From assembly GCA_000991205.1 (NCBI GenBank), contig LBRC01000001.1, positions 1 through 47,664 of the forward strand: 47,664 nucleotides of DNA, in the 5' to 3' direction. A program made the translations under genes and the position numbers. Of the stretch, positions 1,050 to 47,664 are shown one piece after another; position 1 is the stretch's first letter, and each line of letters opens with the position of its first letter. Source of the DNA: Parcubacteria group bacterium GW2011_GWA2_36_10. GTDB lineage: Bacteria > Patescibacteriota > Patescibacteriia > UBA1558 > GWA2-36-10. The notes beneath the pieces are model-generated. The model made no database searches. It worked only from the letters and a program-made list of their open reading frames with translations, and had not been told where the DNA came from.

Positions 1050-1057
1050 CTGTAGAC

Positions 1058-4621: not shown

Positions 4622-5859
4622 TTAATTATTTATTAATTCACGATAATAATTAATTTGTTTTTCAATCAAAATTTTGGAATTATAATTAGCCAAAACATGC
4701 TGACGACCATTAATAGAAAACTCTTTCCATTGTTTTCTATTTTTTATTGCCAAAAGTATTTTCTCTGCCAAAACATTATAATCATTTTCTGGGGCCAACC
4801 AACCGTTGTATCCTTCTATGACCTGTTCTGGCAATCCACTGTGCTTAGTCGTTATCACTGGCACACCAGACGCTAAAGATTGTGATATAATGAGATTCAT
4901 ATTCTTATAAATTATTCCATATCGCCGTTCTTGGCGGTTTTAGATGGCTGAATAAATAAATCAATATTTTTGAAAAAATTTAAAACTTCTTCAACTTGCA
5001 TATAACCATGATAAGTGACTATATCATTTATATTTAAATCAGTTGTTAGCTTTTTTAAATCTTCCTCTAAAGGTCCACCGCCAATAATATGACATTTTAT
5101 ATTTTTAGCGGTCTTTTTTTTGACAATTTCCAAAGCTCTCAATAAATCATCGAAGCCTTTCTTTTCAACAAATCTACCAACAGAAGCAATATCTATACTA
5201 TCTGAATTATTCACTCTTGATTGAAAATGATACTCTTCTACATCAATGCCGACTGGATGAACTATTACTTTGTCCGCATCGAAACCATACCGCACAACTC
5301 TTTGCTTCATATCTTCTGACATGACAAAAAATAAACTACCTATTTTTTTTAACTTATCATAATAACTTTTACCTTTAGTTTTGAAAAGATGACTTACATC
5401 ATAACCATAAAATGTAGTGATAATCTTTACTTTTATATTTAATATTTCTCTGATTATTAAAAATTTATTGGCAGTAGTGCCAAAATGACAATGCACAATA
5501 TCAAATTTCTTACCCAAAAATGGCTCTATCCAAAATAATAGTTTTAAAGATAAGGCGTTTCGTCCATATTTTTTAGCATTAAAAACATCTTTCAATAATG
5601 CCGGTTGAGAAAATAAAATTCTCAAAAACTTAGGGGCAGCCAAAATTATTCTCTCTATCCAGCTATGAGGCCAAACTAGATAATGCGTTCTTTGTTGCAT
5701 TTTATAATCAAAAAACTTTTGACTAATATTATGGTCAATTTTTACTTTGTCTAAAGCAAATATCTGCACATCTATTCCATGATCTAATAGACCCGCTACT
5801 TGATCAATAATAAATGTGGAAATAGTTGGAAAATCTCCTACAATAAAAGCTACTTTCAT
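4622..5859 (-). pseudogene. GT4 (group 1) glycosyltransferase interrupted by a stop plus frame change inside the conserved C-terminal sugar-nucleotide-binding motif
   Basis: The 315-aa ORF ends ...FIQPSKTAKNGDME*. The 92-aa ORF in another frame resumes MNLIISQSLASGVPVITTKHSGLPEQVIEGYNGWL. In intact GT4 enzymes PS..E.G....EAMA.G.PV is one continuous motif. Start coordinates 5859 and 4900 differ modulo 3. Confidence 0.6.
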
Positions 5860-6959
5860 TTGTAAAATTCCTTAATGGATTTAATAACATAATCAATTTC
5901 TCCGTTGGTCATCTCTGGATAAATAGGCAAAGAAACTATTTCTTGCATAATTTTCACTGTCTCTAGTAAAGCGTAATCTTTAACTTTTAAAAAAGCATAA
6001 GCTGGTTGTTGAAAAATTGGCTTAGGATAATGCACGCCAGTTTGCACACCGTGTGTATTTAAAAAATCACGAAATTTTTCTCTGCTTTGGCATCGAATCA
6101 CAAAAAGATGCCAAACTGCTTGATAAATTTTATCATTTTTCGGTGGCAAAATGATTGGCAAATTTTTTAAACTAGCTAAATACATACTAGCTATTGCCTC
6201 TCTACGTTGATTCCATTTGTCTACCTTTTTTAAATCTGTATTTAAAAAAGAAGCTTGTATTTCGTCTAAACGACTATTACCGCCTTCATAAATATTATTA
6301 AATTTAGCCTCTTCGCCATAATTTCTCAAAGCTTTAATCTTTAAAGCTAAGTCTTTATTTTTAGTCACAATCGCACCCGCGTCACCAAAAGCACCAAGAT
6401 TTTTAGTGGGGTAAAAACTAAAACAAGCAATATCGCCAAAAGTACCAACTTTTTTATGCTTATAGATAGCTCCAAAAGCTTGTGCCACATCTTCTACGAC
6501 GTATAAAGAATGTTTTTTAGCTAATGATAAAATACTTGTCATATCAGCTGGTCGCCCATATAAATGCACTGGTAAAATAGCTTTTGTTTTTTTAGAAATT
6601 TTCTTTTCGATTAAAGCTACGTCTATATTAAAATCATCAGGATTAACATCGACAAAAATTGGTGTAGCACCAGTCATACGGATAGCAGAAATCGTAGGTG
6701 TAGCGGTATTAGCTACTGTAATTACCTCATCACCATTACCGATATTTAAAGCTTTTAAAGCTAAAAATATTGCGTCTGTGCCAGAATTTACACCAATGGC
6801 ATACTTGATATCTAAATAAATTGCTAAATTTTTTTCAAAATTATCTAATTCTGGGCCTAAAATAAACCAACCATTTTTAAAAACTTTTTCTATGGCTAAA
6901 TTAATATCTTTTTTATTGTTCTGATATTTACGAACAAAATTGTTAAATAAAACTTTCAT
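5856..6959 (-). CDS. DegT/DnrJ/EryC1/StrS-family PLP-dependent sugar aminotransferase (FdtB/QdtB/TylB-like by context)
   Basis: 367 aa. Motifs: LDNFEKNLAIYL, AIGVNSGTDAIFLALKAL, FSFYPTKNLGAFGDAGAIVT (Lys-containing PLP motif). ATGA overlap with the downstream gene. Confidence 0.9.
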   Translation of the reverse strand: MKVLFNNFVRKYQNNKKDINLAIEKVFKNGWFILGPELDNFEKNLAIYLDIKYAIGVNSGTDAIFLALKALNIGNGDEVITVANTATPTISAIRMTGATPIFVDVNPDDFNIDVALIEKKISKKTKAILPVHLYGRPADMTSILSLAKKHSLYVVEDVAQAFGAIYKHKKVGTFGDIACFSFYPTKNLGAFGDAGAIVTKNKDLALKIKALRNYGEEAKFNNIYEGGNSRLDEIQASFLNTDLKKVDKWNQRREAIASMYLASLKNLPIILPPKNDKIYQAVWHLFVIRCQSREKFRDFLNTHGVQTGVHYPKPIFQQPAYAFLKVKDYALLETVKIMQEIVSLPIYPEMTNGEIDYVIKSIKEFYK

Positions 6960-33238: not shown

Positions 33239-36200
33239 TTAGTAAGTTAAAGTCTTAGGTGTTAATGGCAAGGAGTTGACGGTAGTGATCGAAGAGGTCA
33301 CATCATCAGTCCAAGTAATGTCGCTAGCTTCTAAATTGATAGATAAACTATCAGTCGTGCCAGCATCATTGGTATCCAAAGTTACAAAGAAAGTTTTGGA
33401 GGTACCAGGAGTAATCTCAACGTCAGTAAAGCCAGCGTCGGTAAAAGCTGAATCGGTAAAGTTACCGTTATTCGCTGTGCCGTAGTTAGTTGTGGCTAAA
33501 GCTGAGGTTGCTAGACTATCTTTATAGATAGTCAAAGCTCTGTTAGTAGCAGCTGGAATTGAAATACCGGTTTGATCCATACCAATATTCATAACCTTGA
33601 TAGTAGCTGAATAGTTACCCACGTTAGCGGAGTTGGTAACAACAAATTTAGCTACAGTAGCGCCAGTACCACCGGTTGTTGCTCCTGATGGAGAATCTGA
33701 AGCAAAAGCGGCAGTTAACTTGGTTCTGTAAACTGTCATTTGGTTCACTGTGACGTCAGCATCTGGAGAAGCAGAGAAATCAAGCGTTGCGCCTGTTAAT
33801 TCTGTGCCAGAGCTGACACCAAAAGCAGTTACACCTTCGTTTCCACCATTATAATTAGCTAAAATAGCTAAAGTATGAGTAGATCCAGAAACGGCACCGC
33901 TGCTATAAGGTGTTGCGTCAACTTTGACGGTGACCATAACAGTACTATCAACTGGAATGGTTAAATCTAAATTAGTAAATTTAGCGTGTGCATAAGTTGA
34001 GGTAGCGCTAGTAGTATCAAATTGAACAGTTTGGCCAATTTGAACACCTTCTACAAACAATTTTGCATTCTTCAAAGTACCAGTAGCAGCACTAGAAGTA
34101 TTATCACTAATCACTAACTCTGAAACTCTGACCGCTTCTGAAGCATCAGACGTTAATCTAAAGGTAGCTAATTCATAATCAGTAGCACCCATGACTAATT
34201 GTTGAGCAACAGTTGAATCAGGGTCAGAAGTGATAGTCAAATTACCAGCAGCAGAAAGATAGCCATTCTGCAATGATACATCAGTTGTGTAACTAGCGTC
34301 AGCTGAAGTACTGACACCGGTAGCAGTCACTGAATCAGCTTTAATCACCGGAGTCAAAACAGTAGCAGAGTCTTGGACTGAAGATTTGACATCAGCATAG
34401 ACATCAACTACATATTGTTCACCAGAAGCAATTCTAATCGCTGTGCTTGGTGAGAATGTGTAAGAAGTAGCTGTACCACTAGTATTTAAATTACCGATAG
34501 TTGAACCGATTTGTGTGCCAGATGAGTTCTTTAATTTCAAATTTTGAAAATTATCACCCATTTGACTAACGGTGCTAGCATCTAACATGGCAATTTGTGT
34601 CACATCCACTGCTTCACCAGAACCAGCAGTGACGATAAAGGAAGCAATTTTAGCTTCAGTAGCACCAGCTACACCAGTTGGGCTAGTGGCGCTCTTATCA
34701 CCAAAAGCAGTATTTTCAGATACAACCACTGTACCTGATTGGACGGTCAACGTTCTGCCCTGTTGAGCAGTTGAGCTCAAAGAAGTCAAGGTTGATTGAC
34801 CAACAGCATTAGTAGATCCAGCTGATAAATCAATTCTCAAAGTAGAACCCGCAGCTGTAGAAGAAGCTGTGGTATCCGCTACTGCAGTAACATACTTATA
34901 AGTACCATTTGGAACAATAAAGGTATTACCAAAAGTATAATTAGTACTATCACCAGATGAACCGTTACACTGTAAGGTAGTGTCAGTAGTGCCAATTTGC
35001 GAGCCATCTAACAACAATTTTACATTACTAATATAGTCTGTTGTATCACTACCAGTACAAGTAATAGTCAAATTTTCAACCTTGACTGCTTCACCAGCTG
35101 CATAGAAACTATATTTGGCCAAGGTCAAACCAGTAGCACCATCAGCAATATTGCCTGATGGAGAATCAGTCGCAATACCAACTGTTAAAGTACCACTATC
35201 AATACTAGTACCATTGCCAGTTGTTGGCTGCACAACACCGAAAGCAGTAGTTGTGCCAGTGATGGTGAAAGTGTTATAAACACCATATTCAGTATCATAA
35301 ACCTTTACATCAGCTGATTTTTGAATGGTAAATTTAAATACTCTACCTGAACCACCCATCATATCACCTTTCAAAACTACGATTTTTGATTGGCCAGCTG
35401 TAATAGCAATTGGGCTTGAGCTTAAATCAAAAATAACTGAATTGTCATTAGCGATTTGAGCAGTGGCACCAACTTTGACACCGGCTACTTCTAGTTCTAA
35501 ATTTTGAACATCAGTAGCACTAATGGTACCGACCATGGTGTATTTCATATAGCGAACTTCCATATCTTGTGAGTCAGCGGTCAAAGTCATTCTCCATAAT
35601 TCTTTGTCGGCTTCATCTGCTCTCACTGAAGCTGGGTAACTTCCTGTTTCATATGCATGAGCATATAAATGACCCATGTCAGAAACAGCGGCTGTTTCCA
35701 TCAAATTACCAGTAGCTGGGAAAGTGCCAGAAACTGATCCGGATGATAGAGTGACATCACTAGTTGTGTCTAATTTAAAACCAATAGTTTTACCAGAGGT
35801 GACAGATGTACTACCACGAGCTAAGTCGCCTCTCAAAGTGACGGCTTTAGTTGTTCCAGCTGGCACAGTGAATAGGCCGCTTGTATTTGAGAAGGTGACA
35901 ACCTTATCACTGAATGAAGTATATTCAGCTAATCTAGTCTCACCATCATACAAATATAAATTACCCAAATCAGCATCAGAGGAGATGCCAAAACGAGTAA
36001 ATTTCACAGTGTTTACTTGAACACTACCACTAGCTGAAGCAGTGAAGTTCACAGTTGTAAATGGAATTAAGGCTTGTGGATATTCATTAGCCGTACTATC
36101 AGCTAAAATACTAGCCACAACTGGGGTGGCAGCTGATAAGCTGACGGTCACATTACCACTAGTTTGATTACCACCTTCAACGGCCATAAAGCCTTTCAAA

Positions 36201-36865
36201 GCGGTTTCAGCACCAGTGATAGTAGTACCAGCTGTATAAGAAGCTAGTGACATATTCAAAACATTGGTCAAATTGAAGTTATTAGCTTCAAAAGCATCCA
36301 TTGAGCTAAAAGCTCTCTTGGTGCCATTGTCAATGTAATAATATGTAGTACCATCTTTCACTAAACTACCAGTTGGTAAGGTTGTTGATAAAGCAGTACC
36401 TTCTGGATAAGTAGTGAAAAAGCCTGGGATTAAGTCAACGACTCTTGATGCCCAATTAGCACCAAATAAAGAGCTAGCAATAGCGGCAGTAGGAATATGA
36501 CGAGCAATTCCACCTGGCTCAATAGCAAACACTTTAGCAGTGTCTGAAGTCTTAACTAATTTTGTACCTGGACGAACTGTGACAGCTCCTCCGTTGGTAT
36601 ATAGATCTAATTCTGTTACGGAAACTTTGACAACTGCGTCAAAATTTTCATACCAGGTAAAATATGTCTTCATATCTGGAAAGACATACTTCTTGCCATC
36701 GTTACCAATGTAATATACAGCAGCGCCGGCAGTGTTAGCTTTAGCTAACAAAGAGCCTGCTCCATAATTACCAGCAGCCTTTGCACTTGGCAAAAGACTA
36801 CCAGACATTGTGAATACAGTAGCAAGAGTTAAAGCAAAGATTGAAATTTTCTTTACTAAATTCAT
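33239..36865 (-). CDS. large secreted Thr/Ser/Ala/Gly/Val-rich repeat protein, S-layer-like / major cell-surface protein candidate
   Basis: 1208 aa with signal peptide MNLVKKISIFALTLATVFTMSGSLLPSAKA and only two Cys. At least six divergent beta-rich repeats share the pattern ...(A/L)x(F/Y)xxT(A/S)...V.V....F...G......N..L...G..(I/V)G. Much higher GC than its neighbours (27/60 in line 34561-34620). It has its own terminator and a long leader. Confidence 0.7.
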   Translation of the reverse strand: MNLVKKISIFALTLATVFTMSGSLLPSAKAAGNYGAGSLLAKANTAGAAVYYIGNDGKKYVFPDMKTYFTWYENFDAVVKVSVTELDLYTNGGAVTVRPGTKLVKTSDTAKVFAIEPGGIARHIPTAAIASSLFGANWASRVVDLIPGFFTTYPEGTALSTTLPTGSLVKDGTTYYYIDNGTKRAFSSMDAFEANNFNLTNVLNMSLASYTAGTTITGAETALKGFMAVEGGNQTSGNVTVSLSAATPVVASILADSTANEYPQALIPFTTVNFTASASGSVQVNTVKFTRFGISSDADLGNLYLYDGETRLAEYTSFSDKVVTFSNTSGLFTVPAGTTKAVTLRGDLARGSTSVTSGKTIGFKLDTTSDVTLSSGSVSGTFPATGNLMETAAVSDMGHLYAHAYETGSYPASVRADEADKELWRMTLTADSQDMEVRYMKYTMVGTISATDVQNLELEVAGVKVGATAQIANDNSVIFDLSSSPIAITAGQSKIVVLKGDMMGGSGRVFKFTIQKSADVKVYDTEYGVYNTFTITGTTTAFGVVQPTTGNGTSIDSGTLTVGIATDSPSGNIADGATGLTLAKYSFYAAGEAVKVENLTITCTGSDTTDYISNVKLLLDGSQIGTTDTTLQCNGSSGDSTNYTFGNTFIVPNGTYKYVTAVADTTASSTAAGSTLRIDLSAGSTNAVGQSTLTSLSSTAQQGRTLTVQSGTVVVSENTAFGDKSATSPTGVAGATEAKIASFIVTAGSGEAVDVTQIAMLDASTVSQMGDNFQNLKLKNSSGTQIGSTIGNLNTSGTATSYTFSPSTAIRIASGEQYVVDVYADVKSSVQDSATVLTPVIKADSVTATGVSTSADASYTTDVSLQNGYLSAAGNLTITSDPDSTVAQQLVMGATDYELATFRLTSDASEAVRVSELVISDNTSSAATGTLKNAKLFVEGVQIGQTVQFDTTSATSTYAHAKFTNLDLTIPVDSTVMVTVKVDATPYSSGAVSGSTHTLAILANYNGGNEGVTAFGVSSGTELTGATLDFSASPDADVTVNQMTVYRTKLTAAFASDSPSGATTGGTGATVAKFVVTNSANVGNYSATIKVMNIGMDQTGISIPAATNRALTIYKDSLATSALATTNYGTANNGNFTDSAFTDAGFTDVEITPGTSKTFFVTLDTNDAGTTDSLSINLEASDITWTDDVTSSITTVNSLPLTPKTLTY

Positions 36866-37236
36866 GAATTCTTTTGTTTAATTAATAAAATGTTCTTTAA
36901 GCAAATAAATTTACCTTGACTAAATTATCAGCATCCAAATGCATTTGGACTGGATCCGCCTTTGGCGGAAAACCACAATGCCTAGTTCCTCCCAAATAAA
37001 TGAGATCGACCTTGCTGATCACTAAGCTTGTAGGCAATAAAATAGCTCGAGTACGAAACTCGAAAGTAAATATTATTTAAAGTCTTAAGAACAAACAATA
37101 ACCCCTAATCGCGCGCGATATAGCGATAAGTTAGGGATTATAGTCTTTCTTCCGTGCATGGGAACAAAAACTATGTATCCACAACCTATCTCAAAATCCT
37201 GTTTAGGATTCACGCGCTAATTAGATATATTTTCAA
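36866..37236 (-). other. long, comparatively GC-rich, hairpin-dense leader / possible small RNA upstream of the S-layer-like gene
   Basis: No ORF is present. Palindromes/hairpins read directly at 36934-36949 (TCCAAATGCATTTGGA), 36955-36969, 37047-37063, 37103-37136 and 37195-37210. A TATAAT (minus, 37137-37142) has TTGTTC 19 nt upstream. Confidence 0.4.
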
Positions 37237-37256
37237 CCTGCCTGCCGGCAGGCAGG
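37237..37256 (-). terminator. GC-rich hairpin right after the anti-sigma-like gene (terminator-like, weak U tract)
   Basis: CCTGCCTGCC GGCAGGCAGG is a perfect 20-nt palindrome starting 5 nt after the stop at 37261. The downstream minus-strand sequence TTGAAAATATAT has only a short T run. Confidence 0.5.
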
Positions 37257-37260
37257 AAAA

Positions 37261-38574
37261 TTATTGTAAAAATTCGCTTTCTGGTTTAGCCTGAATATCC
37301 AGACCATTCATCGCTCTATTTATCTCTGTAGTAGTGCTAGCAGTATTAATAGTATTTAGAGTAGTTGGTTTAGAGATTGGTTTCACTTGCTCGATAGTAG
37401 AAGTGCTGTTCACGCTGTCTTTGACAGTTTTTTCAATAGTTCTCAAAGCGCTGCCAATATTTTCTTGCATTACTTTACTTTCTAAGAGTTTGTCGGCTGC
37501 GTCTTTGAAAGAACCAGCGTCCAATAAAAGCTTAGCCTCACCCAACTTGCCTTCGGCTGCTTTTGGTTTTTCACTGATTTCTTTGAGACTAATCACATCA
37601 CCATTGATATTGATAGCCGGCGTCACTTGTACTATATCTTTATTGACTTGGGAGTTCACAGCTTCGGCTTGTTTTTTAGAGTCTTGGATATCAGTAGTTA
37701 ATTGGCTAATTTCTGACTTAATGATTTCAGCGACCGCTGTTTGTACCGCTTTCACTTCGGCTTGATCAGCTACAGCTTGTTTTTGGTCAGCTTGACTATT
37801 GGTGCTCTTTTCAACGTTTTGCGCAGCGGAAGCCACTACTTCTTGATGAACTTCAACGGCTACTTTGACAGCAGTTTTGTCAGCATCAGCGCTAGCAGTT
37901 TTTACTTCAGCTAAAGCCTGCTCTAAAACTGGATTATTATTAGTTAAGGCTTGCGCTTCCAAAACTATTACCTTATCTTTGGTTTGATTAGCCACTTCTT
38001 TGACTTTTTGAGCTAATAGGACAGTTTCTAGTGGGGCTTCTTTTTCTTCTTTGACGATCTGCAAAGTCTTATCTACCGCGGCTGTATCTTTACCTAAATA
38101 GCTAATAACTTGTTTTAAAACTTTGTCATTAGCGATTTGCTTATCTGGATCACTTTTGGTACTAGCGACGATTTTATCTAATTCTTGTAAACGTTTAGTG
38201 ATATGTTTGATATAAACTTCAGCTTCTTTGGTTGAGCTGACGGCCAAGGTCAATTCGGCTTTTTCAAAGCCACGCTTGATTGGCCACAAAGCTTCACCTG
38301 GCACAGAGGCTTGAGCGGCAAAAGTCATGCCAGAGCCTAAGAAAATTACCAGCAAAAAAGCCACTGTTTTAGCCAATGAAGGCATTAAACGACGGGTAAT
38401 TTTCATGCTGAATAAACGAAAACGTTCTTCAGCAGTCAAGCTATGGGCTTTCATCAAACGATGTTGAGAATAAATCTCTGATAAAAGCTGATGTTTGGTT
38501 GTTCTTTCCCAATCATTATCCACTTGGCAAAGTGGTAAGTGTTTGATTTGGGAAATTTTTTTAGCTAAATTCAT
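37261..38574 (-). CDS. single-pass membrane protein with DUF5667-like extracytoplasmic coiled-coil domain, putative anti-sigma factor
   Basis: 437 aa. Cytoplasmic N-terminus, TM helix AKTVAFLLVIFLGSGMTFAAQA, then PGEALWPIKRGFEKAEL and a long Ala/Lys/Glu/Gln-rich helical region. Lies 18 nt downstream of an ECF sigma gene. Confidence 0.55.
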   Translation of the reverse strand: MNLAKKISQIKHLPLCQVDNDWERTTKHQLLSEIYSQHRLMKAHSLTAEERFRLFSMKITRRLMPSLAKTVAFLLVIFLGSGMTFAAQASVPGEALWPIKRGFEKAELTLAVSSTKEAEVYIKHITKRLQELDKIVASTKSDPDKQIANDKVLKQVISYLGKDTAAVDKTLQIVKEEKEAPLETVLLAQKVKEVANQTKDKVIVLEAQALTNNNPVLEQALAEVKTASADADKTAVKVAVEVHQEVVASAAQNVEKSTNSQADQKQAVADQAEVKAVQTAVAEIIKSEISQLTTDIQDSKKQAEAVNSQVNKDIVQVTPAININGDVISLKEISEKPKAAEGKLGEAKLLLDAGSFKDAADKLLESKVMQENIGSALRTIEKTVKDSVNSTSTIEQVKPISKPTTLNTINTASTTTEINRAMNGLDIQAKPESEFLQ

Positions 38575-38592
38575 CTCGATTTATCTTATTAT

Positions 38593-39147
38593 TTATGATT
38601 CTTTAATTATTTCTTTAAGCTTGGTCATTGCTCGATGAAGTAAAACTCGGATATTAGCTTTGTCTTTTTGACAGATCTCACTGATTTCCTCAAAAGACAA
38701 GTCTTCGACATAGCGTAAGAGTAAAACTTCTTGATACTCTGGTTTTAACTTTTGTAAATAATGTAGTAATTTTTCTGTATCGATATCAAAGTCGATTTTG
38801 TCAGTCATAGTCTCATCTGAAAGCTCTTCTTTTTCCGCAAAGTCTTCTAAAGGTAAGTCTTGAGCTTTGTGCTGACGATAATAATCAACGACGACATTTC
38901 TCGCTATCCGATAGATAAAAGCTTGAAAATTCTTAATCTGCTTTTGATCTACTAGATATTGCCAAGCTTTTAAAAATACGTCTTGGGTCAAATCTTCAGC
39001 AATTTGTCGATTTGCTACCTTTAAACTAATAAAACGGTAGATTTGCTTGACATAATGGTCATAAAAAAAAGCAAAAGCCTCGCTATCGCCGCCTTTGAGC
39101 CTTAAAAAAGCTATTTTCTCTTTTAAATTACTACTTATACTTTTCAT
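38593..39147 (-). CDS. ECF-type RNA polymerase sigma factor (sigma-70 family, group 4)
   Basis: 184 aa. Region 2: AFAFFYDHYVKQIYRFISLKV...AEDLTQDVFLKAWQYL. Region 4: EYQEVLLLRYVEDLSFEEISEICQKDKANIRVLLHRAMTKLK. Confidence 0.9.
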   Translation of the reverse strand: MKSISSNLKEKIAFLRLKGGDSEAFAFFYDHYVKQIYRFISLKVANRQIAEDLTQDVFLKAWQYLVDQKQIKNFQAFIYRIARNVVVDYYRQHKAQDLPLEDFAEKEELSDETMTDKIDFDIDTEKLLHYLQKLKPEYQEVLLLRYVEDLSFEEISEICQKDKANIRVLLHRAMTKLKEIIKES

Positions 39148-39154
39148 ATATTAA

Positions 39155-39179
39155 GACGCTGTAGCTCTTAAAATGTTAC
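39155..39179 (-). promoter_or_regulatory. ECF-like promoter motif GTAAC-N16-CGTC ending 7 nt before the sigma-factor ATG
   Basis: Minus strand reads ccaagtGTAACattttaagagctacagCGTCttaatatATG, derived base by base. The AAC-N16-CGT spacing is typical of ECF promoters. Confidence 0.35.
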
Positions 39180-39199
39180 ACTTGGCTTTTTTAATAAAA

Positions 39200-39217
39200 T
39201 TGGCTAATATTAGCCAA
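39200..39217. promoter_or_regulatory. perfect 18-nt palindrome TTGGCTAATATTAGCCAA between a sigma70-like promoter and the ECF-like promoter
   Basis: Read directly. A TTTACA-N17-TATTAT promoter-like pair lies on the minus strand at 39268-39296, upstream of it. Confidence 0.35.
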
Positions 39218-39323
39218 AATAATAAATACATCGACTTTTTGCTTGCTTAAAAATTTAAGTATTTAATATAATACCATTTTTAAGGGGTTTTGTAAAGATT
39301 TTTAGAGAGAATTAATGTCTATT

Positions 39324-40415
39324 TTATAGCTGAACTTCTATCTCCTGCTCTAGCTCATTTCTGGAGATTTTTAAAAGTATTTTATCGCCTGGACGATAAC
39401 TTTGAATAATAGAAGTCAAACTACGCTCGGCTGTAATCACTTCATTATTTACCGCTACTACTTGATCACCTACTTTTAAGCCCGCTTTAGCAGCCACGCT
39501 ATTAGCTGTCACCGCTGATAACTGCGCGTGATACAACAAATGTCCTTTTTGGTTAAAGCCGGCTTGATTTTCAAAATCAAAGTAATACAAACCTAAACTT
39601 GGTCGTTGAGTTTGAGATAACAATGATTTGACAGCTTGTTTCAAATATTCGGCTGGAATTAACAACTTATCTTGTTTTACTTGATAAAAAACTCCCAGCA
39701 CATCACCTTTGACATTAAAAAATGGCGTGCCAGCTAAATTAGTACTTTCTGCTTGATCACCTAGACGTAAATAATAGTCTACTTTATCAGTCGATAAAAA
39801 CTGTTCTATTTGATAATGCTCATGAGCCAAATAATCTCGATAAAAAACATGCTCCATGCTTTCGGCTAAATCAAAATTAGTAAAAACTGTTTCACCAACG
39901 GCTAGTTTACTAGTTAATTGAAAATCAATCGGCTGTAAAAAGTCAGCTTCAATCTTTACAAAAACTAAATTAGTAAAATCATCAGACTTTGTTTCTTTGA
40001 TCGGATAAATTTGATCACCCAAGACAATCATTTCTTTGCCTGTCTTTACTACTTGGTCAGTGGACATCAGCCAACCATCAGAAGTCACCACGGTCGCTGC
40101 GCCTAAATAATCTTCAGGCAAAAAAGTCATTTGCTTTATTTTTGGTAAAATAGCTTTAGCAGTATAGACGCCAGCTACACTTTGCTCATATTTTCTAGCT
40201 AAATCAGTCAATGGCTGTTCTAAATTCACCGTAATATTACGGTTAAAATCACCTAAAGGATTTAAGCCTGCCTTATCCCAAGACAAAGCCTGCATCGCCC
40301 AAAAACCTAAAGCTCCACCAATGACGGCAATTGTGACGGTCAATAAACCCAAATTCACCAAAGATGGCGGACGATTAGTAGTTGGTCTTTCAAAATGTGG
40401 TTGTCTTTCTTCCAT
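39324..40415 (-). CDS. membrane-anchored HtrA/DegP-like trypsin-fold + PDZ protein, catalytic triad apparently not conserved
   Basis: 363 aa. TM helix LGLLTVTIAVIGGALGFWAM. By-eye alignment to the HtrA pattern gives TSDGWLMSTDQVV (His position is Q), FTNLVFVKIE (Asp position is N) and NLAGTPFFN (no GNSGG Ser). C-terminal PDZ: AAKAGLKVGDQVVAVNNEVI. Confidence 0.6.
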   Translation of the reverse strand: MEERQPHFERPTTNRPPSLVNLGLLTVTIAVIGGALGFWAMQALSWDKAGLNPLGDFNRNITVNLEQPLTDLARKYEQSVAGVYTAKAILPKIKQMTFLPEDYLGAATVVTSDGWLMSTDQVVKTGKEMIVLGDQIYPIKETKSDDFTNLVFVKIEADFLQPIDFQLTSKLAVGETVFTNFDLAESMEHVFYRDYLAHEHYQIEQFLSTDKVDYYLRLGDQAESTNLAGTPFFNVKGDVLGVFYQVKQDKLLIPAEYLKQAVKSLLSQTQRPSLGLYYFDFENQAGFNQKGHLLYHAQLSAVTANSVAAKAGLKVGDQVVAVNNEVITAERSLTSIIQSYRPGDKILLKISRNELEQEIEVQL

Positions 40416-40432
40416 AAAATTTATTTAGCTTA

Positions 40433-40560
40433 TTTTTCCCGCGATGCGGGAAAAATATAGCAGTTTTACATATTAATCGCTACTTATCCCATCGCGAAGC
40501 GGGACAAAAAGCAAAACTATATTAATATTATCTCTTATTCTCCCACCGAAGGCGGGAGAA
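40433..40560 (-). repeat. three tandem GC-rich hairpins of one repeat family (copies A, B, C), spaced about 53 nt apart
   Basis: A: 40433-40455 TTTTTCCCGCGATGCGGGAAAAA. B: 40487-40504 TCCCATCGCGAAGCGGGA. C: 40538-60 TTCTCCCACCGAAGGCGGGAGAA. Plus-strand flanks are shared: CT(A/C)(C/T)TTA before and (T/C)ATAG after. Confidence 0.6.
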
Positions 40561-40578
40561 TATATAGATTTTTATTTT

Positions 40579-41037
40579 TTAATGCGCTAAAACAATTTGT
40601 GTTTCAGCGACATTAAGTATTTTCTTTTTATGTAAAATATTAGTTAATTTATCTACTCTTTTGTGTTTATAATTATGCTCCACTCCAAACTCAGCAAATT
40701 TATCATCCAAGTCTGTCTTTCTTACTAATCGTGTATTTATAGTAACCTTTATATCTTTTAGATCTCCTTCTACATTACTTAAAGAGTTTTCGATTTTTTG
40801 AAAACGTTGTTCGTCAAGTTCGGCGGTTTTCAATATAACATCTAAAATCTCATTCTTTTGATCTTCTAACTTTTGATCCATAGCCACCAAAATCTCATCT
40901 TTTTGGATCGATAATTTTTGATCAATGTTTTGATTAACAGCTGTTAAAATATCGTCTTTTTGGATCGATAATTTTTGATCAATGTTTTGATTGATGGCCT
41001 GTAATAACTCTTGATTTGTGATTTCACTTTTCTTCAT
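40579..41037 (-). CDS. small coiled-coil protein with internal 19-aa tandem repeat, function unknown
   Basis: 152 aa. NQNIDQKLSIQKD(D/E)IL occurs twice, 19 aa apart, in a heptad-like Gln/Lys/Asp/Ile-rich sequence. Confidence 0.5.
   Translation of the reverse strand: MKKSEITNQELLQAINQNIDQKLSIQKDDILTAVNQNIDQKLSIQKDEILVAMDQKLEDQKNEILDVILKTAELDEQRFQKIENSLSNVEGDLKDIKVTINTRLVRKTDLDDKFAEFGVEHNYKHKRVDKLTNILHKKKILNVAETQIVLAH
40898..40992 (-). repeat. 57-nt period direct tandem repeat inside the coiled-coil gene
   Basis: The 38-nt core TCTTTTTGGATCGATAATTTTTGATCAATGTTTTGATT is found identically at 40898-40935 and 40955-40992. Confidence 0.85.
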
Positions 41038-41068
41038 AAAGTTTTTCTTTAATTATTATATCTACTTA

Positions 41069-41091
41069 TTTTTCCCGCGACGCGGGAAAAA
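41069..41091 (-). repeat. GC-rich intercistronic hairpin, copy D of the repeat family
   Basis: CTACTTA TTTTTCCCGCGACGCGGGAAAAA CATAGC. It lies 17 nt after the stop of 41109..41834 and 31 nt before the start at 41037. Confidence 0.6.
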
Positions 41092-41108
41092 CATAGCCTT
41101 TTATAATT

Positions 41109-41834
41109 TTAAAAAATAGCACTAATAAATAATAAAATAATTACTCCCAAAAAGCCCAAGAAATAACGAATATAGTGTCTTAGATGGCTTAAGTACCATT
41201 CTAGCACAAAAAACCACCAAAGTGTAGCCACAGTACCAGCTACATAGAAGCTAATTGGCAACAAATATAGGGCCACTAATATCTCACCTAAAGTCAATAA
41301 AACCAGCCAAATTAAACCTTTATTTTCTATTTCTGGCACTAAAGCTAAAATATCTTTGGTCCAAAAATAAGCAGCTAATAATAAAAATATTAAACTATAA
41401 AATAAAGAAAAAGAAATAAAGATAATCAAGTAATAAAAACTACAGGCCAGTAACCAAAAAGAAAAATAATATAAAAAACGATTAAAGGCTAAATAGTCTG
41501 GGTCATTAATATTTTTCAATTTCTTAAAATAAGTAGCCAACAACCAAAAAATAACTCCCCACAATACCACCACGCCAATCATGAGCCAATAACGCAAAAT
41601 ATCGTTAGTTAATAAAATCATAAACAAAATTTGTGAGATAAAAACTAAGCTCAGATTAAACCACAGCTGTAAAAAATTCCAAAAATATTTACCAGCTACC
41701 CAGTACTCCATTATCACTAAAATTAACAGTGAGATAACTACCACCCACCAAATAGAGCCTGGCTTGGTAAAAAATCGCCAGAAATTTAAGGCTAATAGCA
41801 AGGGTGTTAAAAAAATTGGTAAAATTTTATTCAT
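41109..41834 (-). CDS. Trp-rich polytopic membrane protein, unknown function
   Basis: 241 aa and hydrophobic throughout, with about 7 helices. No recognisable motif. Confidence 0.45.
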   Translation of the reverse strand: MNKILPIFLTPLLLALNFWRFFTKPGSIWWVVVISLLILVIMEYWVAGKYFWNFLQLWFNLSLVFISQILFMILLTNDILRYWLMIGVVVLWGVIFWLLATYFKKLKNINDPDYLAFNRFLYYFSFWLLACSFYYLIIFISFSLFYSLIFLLLAAYFWTKDILALVPEIENKGLIWLVLLTLGEILVALYLLPISFYVAGTVATLWWFFVLEWYLSHLRHYIRYFLGFLGVIILLFISAIF

Positions 41835-41839
41835 AAAAT

Positions 41840-42355
41840 TTATCTTTTATCTAATGCTTTAATATATTTGTTTAAAAGAGGTGAAAAATGATTTTTATAT
41901 CTTCTTTGCAACTCTTTATTTTGCCAATCTTTTCCTGTGACACGTCCACGACACAAAGATGAACCGCATTTACATTTCCACTTTGAAACATATTTTTCAT
42001 TTGCTTCCCAAATTGCATAATCAACGGTAATTTCCTCACCTTTTTTAATTTTCTGTTTGGCAATCAAAGTATAAGCATCTGCCATCCAAACATTGGGCTC
42101 ACAAGAATGATTAATAAAATAACCATCATCATTACCTCTTACCTCAAAACTATAAAGATCATCATCCCATTGCATAACTAACATTTTCTTTTCCCGTGCC
42201 TTATCTGCTCCGACTTTATCTGTATAACCACAAGTACCAAAAATTATAAGTTTTTCACCTTTTTTGATAAAAGAATTAGCAAACATACCACTTCCCTCAA
42301 TAAAACTGTTATACACATCAACTTTTGGACTTCTCCAATCTTTTTTCAAATTCAT
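41840..42355 (-). CDS. SET-domain protein (putative protein lysine methyltransferase) with post-SET Cys cluster
   Basis: 171 aa. FINHSCEPNV, EEITVDYA, CKCGSSLCRG. Confidence 0.85.
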   Translation of the reverse strand: MNLKKDWRSPKVDVYNSFIEGSGMFANSFIKKGEKLIIFGTCGYTDKVGADKAREKKMLVMQWDDDLYSFEVRGNDDGYFINHSCEPNVWMADAYTLIAKQKIKKGEEITVDYAIWEANEKYVSKWKCKCGSSLCRGRVTGKDWQNKELQRRYKNHFSPLLNKYIKALDKR

Positions 42356-42370
42356 AAAAAATTTCTCTAC

Positions 42371-42395
42371 TTTCCTCCGCCGAAGGCGGAGGAAA
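42371..42395 (-). repeat. GC-rich intercistronic hairpin, copy E of the repeat family (UUCG loop on the transcribed strand)
   Basis: CTCTAC TTTCCTCCGCCGAAGGCGGAGGAAA TAAAC with a 9-bp perfect GC-rich core stem. It lies 8 nt after the stop at 42404 and 15 nt before the start at 42355. Confidence 0.6.
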
Positions 42396-42403
42396 TAAAC
42401 TAT

Positions 42404-43015
42404 TTATAATATTGTTTTAATTTTAATAATATCATTTATCAAAAAATCTGGTTTTGCTGCAGCTAAAATCTTTTCGTGCTGAAAACCCCATGTAATACCA
42501 ATCGTTTTAATACCCGCTTTTCTCCCAGCCTCCACATCACCGGAAGTATCCCCCATATAAAAACTTTGTTTTTTATCTAAATTAAATTCTTTAACTAGAG
42601 AACTAATGGCTATTTTTTTATCATGAACTTCACAAATTGTTTTTTTTATCAAATTTTCAAGGCCAGATTTTTTAATTTCTGGTATTAATTTTGACTGCCA
42701 ATCTGAACTTACAATAAATAATTTAAATCCTTTTTTATCTAAATAGTTAAATATTATTTTAACATGTTTATAAATTTTTGGATCGCCCGCCAAATGGATA
42801 TATTTTTCATATAACTTATCTTGTTTGTCTTTATCTAAATTAGGAAAATACTTATGCCAAAACTGCATATATGGCTGAGTAAAATTTAATCTAATTTCAT
42901 TTTTATTAATTGGTTTTTTATCCAGCTCAATAAACATGTTTTTGCAAACATAATAAAAACAATAAAAATTGTCACTTAAAGTTCCCGACCAGTCAAAAAT
43001 AACTGCTTTATTCAT
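42404..43015 (-). CDS. HAD-superfamily hydrolase (phosphatase-like)
   Basis: 203 aa. Motif I is VIFDWSGTL (D-x-S rather than D-x-D). Also present: VSSD, K...GDTSGDVEAG. Confidence 0.8.
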   Translation of the reverse strand: MNKAVIFDWSGTLSDNFYCFYYVCKNMFIELDKKPINKNEIRLNFTQPYMQFWHKYFPNLDKDKQDKLYEKYIHLAGDPKIYKHVKIIFNYLDKKGFKLFIVSSDWQSKLIPEIKKSGLENLIKKTICEVHDKKIAISSLVKEFNLDKKQSFYMGDTSGDVEAGRKAGIKTIGITWGFQHEKILAAAKPDFLINDIIKIKTIL

Positions 43016-43021
43016 AATAAT

Positions 43022-43474
43022 TTATTTACTAAATAATTCTTGCCCGACTTGTAATTTTAAACGTTGAATGGTGCCTGAAGGCAATTCTAGCACTTGATTG
43101 ACTGGCATCGGTGAAGTGTATAGAGGTAAGTCTTTCAAAGCTGTATTTTTAGCTAGCTTGGGCATGTTTTCAATATAAGCCATAATTTTACCGTCAAGTA
43201 GCCAAACTAAGTCAATGGCAAAATTCATTTCTTTCATCCAAAAAGATAGATTTTGTTTTTCTGGATAAATAAATAGCATGCCTTGATTTTGCTCTAAACC
43301 CTCTCTATTAGATAGTCCTTGGCGATATTGCTCGGGCGTTTTGGCTAAATCTAAGACAAAATCAACTCCTACTAAATTATAAGTTTGCTTTTCAAAAATC
43401 AAACTTTTTTGTCCACAAGCAGATAAAAATAAAATAAACGCTAATAAACAAAAAGATTTAATTTTGTTGGGCAT
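43022..43474 (-). CDS. DUF192-family lipoprotein
   Basis: 150 aa with a lipobox (LFLSAC/GQ). DUF192-like core: GLSNREGLEQNQGMLFIYPEKQNLSFWMKEMNFAIDLVWL. Confidence 0.7.
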   Translation of the reverse strand: MPNKIKSFCLLAFILFLSACGQKSLIFEKQTYNLVGVDFVLDLAKTPEQYRQGLSNREGLEQNQGMLFIYPEKQNLSFWMKEMNFAIDLVWLLDGKIMAYIENMPKLAKNTALKDLPLYTSPMPVNQVLELPSGTIQRLKLQVGQELFSK

Positions 43475-44885
43475 TAGTTTTGTAGTTAAGCCAATAACTC
43501 AAAATAAACATCAGGCATAATAAAATAAGTAAAGCACTTAGTTTGGCTTTGGTAGTAAAGAATATAGAGACTGCCCCAAATAATAAAGCTAAAAAAGAAT
43601 ACAATAAAACTACTTGTCTTTGGGATAAACCTAGTTTTAATAAACGGAAATGCAAATGATGCTGATTATCGCCTTGCCAAAAAGCTTGTTTATTTTTTAG
43701 ACGTCGGATAATCACCCATAAGACATCTAAAGCTGGCAAACCCATCACTAATAAAGCCGTAGCTATTTTAGCTCCAGAAAGAATCGCTAAAACGCCTAAA
43801 CTAAAACCAATAAAAGTACTGCCTGACTCACCTAAAAAAATCTTAGCCGGATAAAAATTCCACACCAAAAAGCCTAAAATAGCACCAGCTAAACCAAGAC
43901 TTAATAGAGAAGTAGTAGAGCCAGACACATCCCAGCTCAAACTCACCAAAAAAATAATAAAACTAGCTACTAAACCCAAAGACCCAACTAAACCATCAAG
44001 ACCATCTAAGACTTTCGTGGTATAAGTCATGCCCAAGAGCCATAAAAAAGTAATGGCTAGCATCACTAAAATGCTCAAGTCACCAAAAAAATTTTCAAAG
44101 TACCAGACACCACCTTGCCAGCTAGTCAAGTATGAAACTTTGACACCACCTATCAGCATCACTACAGAGGCCAAAATTGGGCCCATGATGCTTATTTTAG
44201 CCTTTAAGGCATATTTATCGTCTAAAAATCCGCCAATTGCGCGGGCAGCTAGTATTACTCTCAGCTTTTCGACGCTATATTGCCGTTTAATAAGTTTTTG
44301 AAATATCTGCTCAGCCAGTTTGGTACTCTTCAAAACACTGAAAACTCTTTGAATTAAATAGCCAATATCATAACCTTCAACGCTGTCTGCCTTTGCATGC
44401 TCACCATCAATCAGCCCAAGTTTGCCAGAACCTGTCACTTCAAGTATCTTAAACGTTACGCCCGGCCCATTAGTTATATCACCTAGCGTAATACTGTCGC
44501 CCGTATAAACAGGCTGGTTTGCACTTGTCGTTGAACCAACCAGAATGTTTCCTACAACACTGGTTGATGCAACGGTAGTTGAACCAAACACCTTGCCATT
44601 CGCAGTAAATACACCGGTATCATTACCCGATTCAACCAGCATAATGTTCCGTGCCACAATATCCTGGGGACCGACCGACAATATTGATCCTGTGGTCTGA
44701 TCAATAGCCTCAATCTGCACCCTGGATGTGCCTGTGCCTGGATTACCGGACAGCAAAACGCTCCGGTTTGAAAACCCAATTACATCTTTCCCAACGGGAT
44801 TTAAGTTCTCGTCAGGGTCGGTAATGCTCAAGCGTGTTTCCTGATGAGACGGTAAGGTATGCGTCTGACCCTGTTGATGTATCAC
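43458..44885 (-). CDS. composite ORF. The C-terminal ~310 aa (about 43458-44380) are a MraY/WecA-family polyprenyl-phosphate HexNAc-1-phosphate transferase; the N-terminal ~165 aa belong to an unrelated higher-GC surface-protein gene.
   Basis: MraY/WecA hallmarks: GGFLDDKYAL, VLDGLDGLVGSLG, FLGESGSTFIGF, DVLWVIIRRL...GDNQHHLHFRLL. The expected first TM helix and RK.H loop are missing. The N-terminal part (LSITDPDENLNPVGKD...TGSILSVGPQDIV) is Thr/Gly/Ser-rich and has different base composition. Confidence 0.7.
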   Translation of the reverse strand: MIHQQGQTHTLPSHQETRLSITDPDENLNPVGKDVIGFSNRSVLLSGNPGTGTSRVQIEAIDQTTGSILSVGPQDIVARNIMLVESGNDTGVFTANGKVFGSTTVASTSVVGNILVGSTTSANQPVYTGDSITLGDITNGPGVTFKILEVTGSGKLGLIDGEHAKADSVEGYDIGYLIQRVFSVLKSTKLAEQIFQKLIKRQYSVEKLRVILAARAIGGFLDDKYALKAKISIMGPILASVVMLIGGVKVSYLTSWQGGVWYFENFFGDLSILVMLAITFLWLLGMTYTTKVLDGLDGLVGSLGLVASFIIFLVSLSWDVSGSTTSLLSLGLAGAILGFLVWNFYPAKIFLGESGSTFIGFSLGVLAILSGAKIATALLVMGLPALDVLWVIIRRLKNKQAFWQGDNQHHLHFRLLKLGLSQRQVVLLYSFLALLFGAVSIFFTTKAKLSALLILLCLMFILSYWLNYKTNAQQN

Positions 44886-45351
44886 CGCCCGTATTTGCTA
44901 CTAATTCTTTCAGGTTTAAACCTACCACAGATGTTCCTAAGCCAGGGAAGTTATGACTACCTGCACCAAAATCTTCGACATAACCAGAAATCGTGCCTAC
45001 AGGATACGTTGTTGATTGTGTCGATGCCGATGTAGTAAATATGGCACTGGCAGTACCTGTCTCTTGTAAGACAAAAGACGCTGAATTTGAACCTGCTTTT
45101 ACAGTCACGGTGATTGTATCCCGAGCACTGGTCGTATTTCCTGATGAATCAGTTACCGATAGCCAGGCGCGGTCAAAATCATTCGTACTGTCGCCATAGG
45201 ATGGAAAATAATTATCCCTGTCAAAACTACCCGTTGCGGCCTGTGCATTTGTAGACACACCCACCGCAAGGGCTACTGCCAGCATAAACACACTGACAAT
45301 GCTAAACCAACTTATTTTTTTACTTGTTTTCGGTCTTTCCATATCCGTCAA
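44812..45351 (-). pseudogene. 5' part of a secreted Thr/Ser/Gly-rich surface protein gene, frameshifted near 44829 and continuing in the frame of ORF 43458..44885
   Basis: 179-aa ORF with a signal peptide (WFSIVSVFMLAVALAVGVSTNAQA). Removing one G at 44829 (minus strand) joins ...LTVSSGNTL to SITDPDENLNPVGKD... of the overlapping ORF. Confidence 0.55.
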
Positions 45352-46252
45352 TTCTCCTTTTTTATTGAAACTAACAAGACCAGAATTAAAGATAAATTCA
45401 CTGTTCTCTATTCTTTAATTGCAGAGGCAGATTTAAAACCTGTCTCTACTTTAGACGCACTGCAGTGCGTCCCTACAACTAAAAATACCTTTGATCTCCC
45501 AATCAACTTCAACCCCTTTTCACCTCTCCACCACCTCCTTCTTTGAGAAAATGGCCAGGCAAGAGATGGGAAAAAACTAAGTGTTGATTTACTGCAACGA
45601 TTGCTGTTTTGCCGCACTGCCAGCCACACTCCTTCGTTCGCACAGCACAATACACCGGGGGCCACCGATGTACCTGTATTGCAGGAGAATCAAGTGTTGT
45701 TTTTCCCGATATCTTCCTCCTTTCTTCTAATAAATGCAAGATGATTTAATCTAAAATGTTTACTGATATGCCGTAACTGCTATTTTCAGACTGTGGGAAT
45801 ATAACATGCAAATATTTTCACGTCAACAAAAAAATTAAAAAATTTATGCTTTTTTACAATTATCTGCAGGGGTTAAAACTCTGAAATTTTTTCTATTTTG
45901 TGTAATATTTCAGAAAGCCTTCATTAAAATGGGTGTTTATTGCAAAAATTTACCGGGTCTTTCTGCAAAGGTGTTTTTGTTTGACTTCTCATCACCGCCT
46001 TGTTATTATTTCGACTCATTATTGTTAGTCTATCATTGGATTATGCCTTCGGCAACTTTAAAATACACATTTTCACGACAGCGCGCCACCCACTTCTCCC
46101 CAGCCAGCTGGGGACAGATGGTTGTCCGCCTCAGCATTGGGGATTAAGGGTGAGGCGCATTTGTTTGAATTTCCTCTGTGCTGGTTCAGGGCTTGAGGCC
46201 TGAACCGAAACATTTAGGTTCAATCGGGGACGATTGAACCAGCAAAAGAAAC

Positions 46253-46299
46253 GTAGCGCGAACTTTAGTTCGCTTATAATGAACTAAAGTTCGTGCTAC
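46253..46299. other. 19-bp-stem hairpin about 37 nt upstream of dnaA
   Basis: GTAGCGCGAACTTTAGTTC gcttataat GAACTAAAGTTCGTGCTAC, with one G-T wobble and otherwise perfect pairing. It is preceded by hairpins at 46098-46113, 46127-46157, 46183-46206 and 46217-46240. Confidence 0.6.
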
Positions 46300-46335
46300 T
46301 ATGGTAATTTTGAAATTCCTTTAATTATTTCACTC

Positions 46336-47664
46336 ATGCCTATAGGTTTAGAACAATCCAGTACAATAATAAAGGTTTTCCCGCGCAAGGGTGTCTCTTC
46401 AGACACCGACGCCAACTCCATACTTTTGGAAATATTAGCTGAATTAAAGATGTCCGTTCCTGCTCAGCAGTTCGATATATGGTTCTCTTGTCTGAGAATT
46501 TTCTCTATTGATGAAAGCAGTATTACATTTATAACGCCAAATAATTTCATAAAGGATTGGTTCTCCAGTAATTATAAGGACCTTTTCTCTGGCGCAGCTT
46601 ACCGGGTGTTAAATTCATCGCGGGAGATAGTATTCCTTGCTGAAGACGAAGCGCTCAGACAGTCGCAGGCTTCATCCGCCTCCTCCTGCGATACCCCTAA
46701 GTCTATTCGTGAATTACCCGCAAACAACGGGCAGGCGAATTCCCTGAACGGATACTACCGCTTTGAAAATTTCATCGTAGGGCCGTGCAACAGATTAGCT
46801 CATGCTGCTGCCGTTGCCGTTTCTGAGTCTCCGGGTATTGCGTATAATCCTCTTTTTATACATGGCGCGTCCGGGCTCGGGAAGACACATCTCCTGCATG
46901 CGATAAATAATGTGCTTCTCCCGAAACGCACAATAAGGACGCTTTACCTGTCCTGTGAACAATTCGTGAATCATTTTATTTCTACCATGCGGTCAAATAA
47001 CTGGGACGAATTCAGAAATCTTTACAGGAACCTGGATGTGCTCCTGCTCGATGATATACAATTCTTTGAAAACTTACAAGGCTGCAGAGAGGAGTTTTTC
47101 CACACCTTTAATGCACTTTATAATGCCAAGAAACAGATTGTTATCACGAGCGACTGTCCTCCCGAATCTTTAAATTCCCTTGAGGACAGACTCGTCTCCC
47201 GTTTTAAATGGGGATTGTTGTGCAGTGTTGATAGTCCCACAATAGAAACGCGCGTCGCGATTATCGAGAAAAACGCATCGCTCATGAACATAAACCTGAC
47301 GCACGACTTCGCTTCTTATCTTGCAGAACACCTCCCGGGCAACATCCGCGAGCTCGAAGGCGCAATTGTAAGATTGGGCAAGGAACTCAAGGTTACGAGA
47401 AATACTATGACATTGGATTTTATAAAAAAAGTCCTTCACGAAATAACGGGAAACAAACAATCGGTAGCTATTGAAGCCATTCTTCGTGCTGTTTCTGACA
47501 GATTTAATGTGAGTATATCTCAACTCCAGTCAAAGAGCAGGTCGAGAAGCCTCACATTACCAAGGCAAATAGCAATGTACCTTTCCCGAAAACTGACAAA
47601 TATGTCACTTACAGAGGTGGGGGGTTTTCTGGGGGGACGAGACCACTCCACAGTAATCCATGCA
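46336..47664 (+). CDS. dnaA: chromosomal replication initiator protein DnaA, 3' end cut off by the window edge
   Basis: Not in the ORF track (open-ended). My translation reads MPIGLEQ...ILLEILAELKMSVPAQQFDIWFSCL...YRFENFIVGPCNRLAHAAAVAVSE...NPLFIHGASGLGKTHLLHAI...LDVLLLDDIQFF...FHTFNALY...KQIVITSD...LEDRLVSRFKWGL...NIRELEGA...RSRSLTLPRQIAMYLSRKLTNMSLTEVGGFLGGRDHSTVIHA. An in-frame stop at 46285-46287 bounds the 5' end. Confidence 0.95.
   Translation, partial: MPIGLEQSSTIIKVFPRKGVSSDTDANSILLEILAELKMSVPAQQFDIWFSCLRIFSIDESSITFITPNNFIKDWFSSNYKDLFSGAAYRVLNSSREIVFLAEDEALRQSQASSASSCDTPKSIRELPANNGQANSLNGYYRFENFIVGPCNRLAHAAAVAVSESPGIAYNPLFIHGASGLGKTHLLHAINNVLLPKRTIRTLYLSCEQFVNHFISTMRSNNWDEFRNLYRNLDVLLLDDIQFFENLQGCREEFFHTFNALYNAKKQIVITSDCPPESLNSLEDRLVSRFKWGLLCSVDSPTIETRVAIIEKNASLMNINLTHDFASYLAEHLPGNIRELEGAIVRLGKELKVTRNTMTLDFIKKVLHEITGNKQSVAIEAILRAVSDRFNVSISQLQSKSRSRSLTLPRQIAMYLSRKLTNMSLTEVGGFLGGRDHSTVIHA

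Follow-up and report, generated by a model that had tools for sequence, protein, structure and literature searches.

The right end of the contig studied here raises the question of how a single continuous open reading frame (ORF) comes to run through an abrupt change in base composition. The window, by which we mean the whole stretch of DNA analyzed (47,664 nt), is the entire contig C1, one of 48 contigs in a 798,870-nt metagenome-assembled genome (MAG) of Parcubacteria group bacterium GW2011_GWA2_36_10. This MAG is 88% complete and 2.3% contaminated by its quality scores, and the genomes of its relatives range from 0.5 to 1.2 Mb. An initial annotation of the DNA had reported G+C counts of 17/60 in positions 43501-43560 and 29/60 in 44641-44700, both of which are exact, and had placed the change within one continuous ORF, which we recovered at 43458..44885 on the minus strand (475 aa). 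It offered a misassembly as the leading explanation and a genuine recombination or integration event as the alternative. Judged from comparisons of sequence, the last 3.4 kb of the window (44232-47664) are almost certainly an artefactual tail on a Patescibacteria-type contig and not a biological feature.

Along C1, GC content is ~29% in the first 33 kb, 39% between 33 and 39 kb, ~31% between 39 and 44 kb, and 43% from 44416 to 47664. The first 33 kb (O-antigen-ligase/TPR genes and others) lie in the low tail of the MAG, whose mean is 36.5%, and make C1 its lowest-GC contig. The whole contig could in principle be native, the rise in GC being ordinary heterogeneity and the dnaA gene at the right end a native paralogue. 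Consistent with this idea, 3-kb chunks of the MAG span 26.6 to 50.5% GC (95th percentile, 42%), values of 43 to 47% are frequent among native contig ends in a GC scan of the MAG, and the 33-39-kb stretch of C1, at 39% GC, is nevertheless native and syntenic with a same-family genome. The last native gene part of the contig has 35.9% GC, which leaves a modest step in GC where the true joint lies. Comparison of the tetranucleotide profiles of the two halves, which the initial annotation had suggested, was carried out as a principal-component analysis of GC and tetranucleotides in 3-kb MAG chunks and did not discriminate. Because the MAG is compositionally heterogeneous, composition alone cannot decide between a foreign and a native origin; the GC change read as a sign of chimerism is real, but GC by itself is not diagnostic.

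Homology gave a sharper boundary. Residues 213-370 of the 475-aa ORF match Glycos_transf_4 (PF00953, E = 3.9e-27), the family of MraY/WecA-type glycosyl-phosphate transferases (GT4). GT4 orthologues from 12 relatives, with native open frames of 350 to 390 aa, align to ORF residues 215-472 only. DNA identity to the same-genus genome G001 is 84 to 88% (87.8% in GT4) and stops exactly at 44231. The native 3′ part of the gene therefore occupies 43458..44231 on the minus strand (257 codons plus stop), as delimited by PF00953, by DNA homology to G001, and by eight independent contigs from the European Nucleotide Archive (ENA) described below. By these alignments, the true end of the native sequence of C1 is 44231, inside the GT4 gene. 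Compared with full WecA/MraY-family (PF00953) polyprenyl-phosphate N-acetylhexosamine-1-phosphate transferases, the window copy retains only GFLDD and onward and lacks the full multi-pass PF00953 architecture, having no N-terminal transmembrane (TM) helix or cytoplasmic loop before the DD motif. The GT4 gene of G001 is complete, with TM1, the RKIHKKPIPLLGG (RKIH) loop, and later helices ahead of GLLDD. The intact native gene in the ENA contigs (L048-L055) encodes a 355-aa PF00953 protein with the N-terminal TM helix, the RKIHKKPIPLLGG loop, and the GFLDD motif, which bears out the earlier remark that the window copy lacks TM1 and this loop. The missing 5′ end of GT4 found no match anywhere in the MAG.

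Mis-binning of the contig as a whole was considered and rejected: in a synteny comparison that covered C1 from 33 kb rightwards, 36118-44231 is syntenic with same-genus or same-family genomes, among them the same-family genome G014, and C1 links to contig C16 of the same MAG.

The independent contigs were retrieved from ENA by the exact product of the neighboring DUF192 gene, and the eight shown come from metaSPAdes, MEGAHIT, and "ANAN16" scaffold assemblies of several samples. All eight follow the window at 98.8 to 100% identity as far as 44231 exactly and are unlike it beyond. There they carry the intact 355-aa GT4, followed by ruvX, map, adk, secY, and ribosomal-protein genes. One of these contigs, L051, corresponds over its positions 1-3012 to MAG contig C16 at 99.9% identity, and C16 ends three codons before the end of secY. 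L051 thus bridges C1 (at 44231) and C16 (at position 1), which makes C16 the true neighbor of C1 across an assembly gap of 2,231 nt. In L051 this gap contains adk, map, ruvX, and the 5′ third of GT4; adk, map, and ruvX were not found in the MAG and all lie in the gap.

The same continuation was seen in Logan contigs, which derive from related public groundwater and soil runs and show presence, not absence. The left piece is present at a depth of 15 to 37 in run X2, and a 636-nt Logan contig of this run crosses 44231 into AAAGATCATGAGGATCAAGCCAGCGACAAA, whose reverse complement encodes FVAGLILMIF and then GFLDD, that is, the native TM helix just before GFLDD. No part of the tail was present among the Logan contigs of run X2.

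Two further features of the native side vary among these near-identical contigs. The window and L050 share a 158-nt intergenic segment at 40417-40574, where L048 and L049 have a single base; its presence or absence among near-identical contigs indicates a strain-variable insertion or deletion. The adjacent minus-strand ORF at 40579..41037 (152 aa) contains direct repeats at 40889-40992 with a 57-nt period and a matching 47-nt core. The copy number of this repeat is also strain variable: the ORF has 171 aa in L048 (19 aa more, or 57 nt) and 152 aa in L049, L050, and the window.

Beyond 44231 the window continues in pieces of two further genomes. The first is an internal fragment of an APH-like (phosphotransferase-like) gene, 213 nt long, at 44218..44430 on the minus strand. 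When JGI metagenome contigs were scanned for its exact pattern, this middle piece appeared at 100% identity over exactly 213 nt in Ga0209542_10216536 and in Ga0075635_108, a 59-kb contig (L046 and L047), and in both the flanks differ from the window on both sides. Separate Logan contigs of runs X6, X9, and X13 also contain the middle piece, again with unlike letters on both sides. Searches of four Planctomycete genomes and of same-genus G001 did not find it. Its parent gene encodes a protein of 317 aa (…RHGDFTPWHLFVLDSGKLGLIDGEHA…GGFLDEFLVENPDYL) whose match to PF01636 (APH) is weak (E = 0.0036) and below the cut-off; a Pfam search of the 213-nt fragment itself returned no match. On L047, a contig of 39% GC, the parent gene lies at 5388-6341, carries HGD...N-like and IDGEH motifs, and is adjoined by yebC-like and LytR-like genes.

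The two joints that enclose this piece can be placed exactly. The first, J1 (44218..44231), is a 14-nt stretch, TCGTCTAAAAATCC, common to native GT4 and the third-genome fragment; in a three-way alignment of the window, L051, and L047, its minus strand encodes G-F-L-D-(D/E) in the same frame in both parents, and Logan contigs stop or diverge at 44231 and at 44218. The second, J2 (44416..44430), is an identity of ~15 nt common to the third-genome and Planctomycete fragments, with a minus strand encoding S-G-K-L-G, likewise in the same frame in both parents. The identity to L047 stops at 44430, and the Logan contigs of the right piece begin matching at 44416 in runs X8 and X21. J1 and J2 are plain identities within coding sequence. 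Because the two parents of each joint share both residues and frame there, one open frame crosses both joints. This conservation of frame is a modest coincidence and is no evidence of selection.

These positions revise the picture of a single break at about 44,380 between two genes. The junction interval proposed in the initial annotation (44300-44460) leaves J1 outside; the splice is in frame, as stated there, but it unites three genes from three source genomes and not two. The chimeric 475-aa ORF in the ORF list (43458..44885, minus strand) crosses J1 and J2, and its upstream end lies at a third joint, J3. The "fusion protein" that it encodes is an artefact and no real protein. An exact look-up of its product found no identical product in other assemblies, which is weak evidence because the start chosen by a gene caller may differ.

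To the right of J2, the window is of Planctomycete origin. Positions 44407/44437 to 47664 align by blastn to three contigs (L017, L019, and L020), and the layout of L017 is like that of the window, with an opposite-strand surface-protein gene, a spacer of ~0.9 kb, dnaA, and dnaN. The surface-protein gene is represented by an internal, Thr/Gly/Ser-rich fragment at 44416..44826 (minus strand; blastn identity, 67 to 72% to L017, L019, and L020) and by its 5′ part with the signal peptide at 44827..45351 (minus strand; blastn identity, 76%). The N-terminus encoded in the window (MTDMERPKTSKKISWF...) matches that of L017 (MTDMKRPKTSNKKISWF...). Both the N-terminal part of the 475-aa ORF, the first ~160 residues of which are Thr/Gly/Ser-rich, and the ORF at 44812..45351 align to one surface protein of L017, which is at least 1091 aa long, its frame being open at the contig end. 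Thus, the proposal that the Thr/Gly/Ser-rich part continues the gene of 44812..45351 was correct, but the continuation is not a frameshifted one. Relative to L017, L019, and L020, there is a clean gap: the window lacks exactly 128 nt of the gene at 44826/44827 (J3, 44826..44829), and this omission makes ORFs 44812..45351 and 43458..44885 look frameshifted relative to each other.

Same-strain sequence in public runs is also at odds with J3. On each side of 44828, Logan contigs of X8, X12, X21, and X22 match the window at 100% identity, but at that point they run into different letters. The continuation in X22, AATAATCAGATTAATGTTGCTAAGAGAATC, is orthologous to the 128-nt stretch present in L017, so the 128 nt exist in the same strain elsewhere. 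A single-base frameshift at ~44827 was rejected on two counts, namely, the 128-nt gap relative to three relatives and the disagreement of same-strain contigs in four runs. The two overlapping surface-protein ORFs of the window stem from a local error in the assembly or, at most, from a rare deletion. Exact look-ups of the truncated surface-protein product (179 or 176 aa, from two starts) found none in other assemblies, which is weak evidence.

Between the surface-protein gene and dnaA lies a Planctomycete spacer (45352..46335) that is partly conserved in L017-L021 and holds hairpin repeats at 46175-46321. The repeats form two adjoining units, at ~46175-46249 (with GGTTCA...TGAACC stems) and ~46250-46321. 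Dozens of copies are present in the Planctomycete genomes G031 and G032 at 75 to 97% identity, and no further copy was found in the MAG. Their summed Logan depth reaches 7453 in X21, with many different flanks. The repeats resemble an interspersed, REP/MITE-like family belonging to Brocadiia-related Planctomycetes of groundwater, and the hairpin-packed spacer before dnaA belongs to the Planctomycete, not to the genome of the MAG.

The window ends in a plus-strand dnaA gene (46336..47664; 443 codons, cut by the contig end; Pfam Bac_DnaA, DnaA_N, and Bac_DnaA_C). A scan of 185,579 species genomes placed its product with Planctomycetes: amino acid identity is 89% with L017 ("Planctomycetes bacterium GWA2_39_15"), 84% with both "Candidatus Wunengus sp." and a Planctomycetota MAG from groundwater, and 66 to 68% with Brocadia, Jettenia, and Loosdrechtia. 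Identity to the DnaA of all 29 MAG relatives having one is only 35 to 45%, and each of these 29 has a single dnaA. The MAG carries a second dnaA on contig C11, whose product is 92% identical to that of G001, 67 to 80% identical to those within the family, and 53 to 65% identical to those within the order. As had been noted earlier, the window dnaA is foreign in composition (44.4% GC and GC3 of 0.47, versus 38.6% and 0.35 for the C11 gene). The C11 copy is evidently the native dnaA of the MAG, and the window copy is foreign; a native paralogue was therefore rejected, the window DnaA being closest to Planctomycetes, the relatives having single dnaA genes, and the C11 copy being native.

An entirely native contig, which the range of GC values had allowed, is barely conceivable in light of these comparisons: the window DnaA is 35 to 45% identical to relatives versus 80 to 89% to Planctomycete MAGs, dnaA-bearing relatives have one dnaA each, their homology to the window stops at 44231, and the tail contains Planctomycete-specific repeats. 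When the halves were assigned separately, as the initial annotation had advised, the left one had its affiliation with same-genus G001 (84 to 88%) and the right one with Planctomycetes.

None of the junctions was reproduced in independent contigs or runs. No Logan contig among twelve runs crosses any of the joints, and the Logan contigs break where the independent assemblies do. The best sampled 31-mer share was 0.32 for 43900-44900, equal to that of the left piece alone, and 0.67 for 44232-44500, equal to that of the middle piece alone; no indexed run had a word share reaching across a joint, and no indexed run contained the left piece and the tail together. Wherever the tail pieces were found at 100% identity, their depth was 2 to 5.

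Genuine recent recombination or integration, placing a Planctomycete surface-protein/dnaA fragment and a third-genome scrap within the GT4 gene of a real strain, has in its favor that the sequence occurs in a deposited assembly and that both joints are crossed by one open frame. Microhomology-mediated illegitimate recombination can use identities of ~14 nt. The native continuation, however, is present in 8 of 8 same-strain contigs and in the deep run X2. An insert would imply the loss of adk, map, ruvX, and the 5′ end of GT4, but the gap is followed directly by C16, which ends in secY; adk and map are generally expected in every bacterium. No recombinase ORF was found in 44232-47664, the joints have no integrase, att site, or mobile-element feature, and tRNA and Rfam scans of the window found neither an RNA gene nor, at the joints, a tRNA that could serve as an integration target. 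Free-living versions elsewhere match the inserted pieces at 100% identity, the surface-protein gene of the tail misses an internal 128 nt, and the contig simply stops within dnaA. Given the native continuation in eight assemblies and the lack of integration features, this alternative is highly improbable and effectively excluded. It is just as improbable that a rare strain in the source sample carried a microhomology-mediated inter-phylum insertion replacing adk-map-ruvX and the 5′ end of GT4. Such an insert, if true, would consist of a Planctomycete surface-protein/oriC-side/dnaA fragment and a third-genome scrap, and would be a snapshot of illegitimate recombination with environmental DNA in an ultra-small bacterium.

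Misassembly, already favored in the initial annotation, is accordingly the reading that the different taxa, the eight diverging assemblies, the native dnaA on C11, and the lack of a spanning Logan contig among the runs support. The native genome runs from 44231 through the 5′ third of GT4 to ruvX, map, adk, and secY and on into C16. This 2.2-kb native stretch failed to assemble, and two foreign pieces take its place. The first, the 213-nt APH-like fragment of a third organism and about the size of a read pair, is attached by the 14-nt identity. The second, a low-coverage Planctomycete fragment that itself lacks 128 nt, is attached by the 15-nt identity. We infer that the tail was added during metagenome assembly (or scaffolding, gap closing, or curation), possibly earlier through chimeric library fragments. 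The smallest k commonly used by de Bruijn assemblers exceeds the overlaps of 14 to 15 nt, and J3 overlaps by only ~2 nt; the assembler, a gap-closing or curation script, or in vitro chimeric fragments may each have been responsible.

Among the routes to such a tail, the joins could have arisen in vitro, by template switching at short identities during library amplification, with the assembler then following single chimeric fragments where coverage was low at the end of the contig. Joints on exact identities of 14 and 15 nt, below typical assembler k-mers, fit this route, as do a middle piece (213 nt) of about the size of one insert and a tail depth of only 2 to 5 in all runs with tail pieces. 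The ~2-nt overlap of J3, by contrast, fits poorly with both template switching and a k-mer graph. We regard an in vitro origin as unlikely, and its outcome would be the same as that of a join made in assembly, namely, an artefact.

Scaffold ends with local errors or non-unique sequence, as well as chimeric ORFs, are recognized problems of metagenome assembly (Chen et al. 2020, Genome Res 30:315, PMC7111523), and a recent preprint describes interspecies chimeric contigs in most near-complete benchmark MAGs (bioRxiv 10.64898/2026.10.15.759294). Like known chimeric contigs, C1 contains foreign sequence within a MAG accepted by marker-based quality checks, has its join at one end, shows truncated genes where the pieces meet, and adds a duplicate of a single-copy marker, dnaA. 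It differs from them in having three source genomes within 3.4 kb, joints on identities of 14 to 15 nt in place of long conserved repeats (rRNA or IS elements), and an additional internal omission of 128 nt. As in horizontal gene transfer or a genomic island, GC and codon usage shift abruptly in C1 and the genes beyond are of other taxonomic affinity. Unlike in such cases, the junction is not reproduced in independent samples, the joints consist of gene fragments with no integration features, and the tail holds the replication initiator of another phylum, cut by the contig end.

The MAG is a species representative, and through C1 it carries 3.4 kb of foreign DNA into the record, with an extra dnaA, a spurious glycosyltransferase "fusion" of 475 aa, and a surface protein that is falsely frameshifted. 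If not trimmed, the tail would mislead the prediction of replication origins, the inference of horizontal transfer, estimates of contamination, and pangenome and protein-family databases. There is no new biology in the tail of C1, but its recognition is of practical use: the record of this genome is corrected by trimming C1 at 44231 and placing it beside C16, with the sequence of the 2,231-nt gap between them known from other assemblies.
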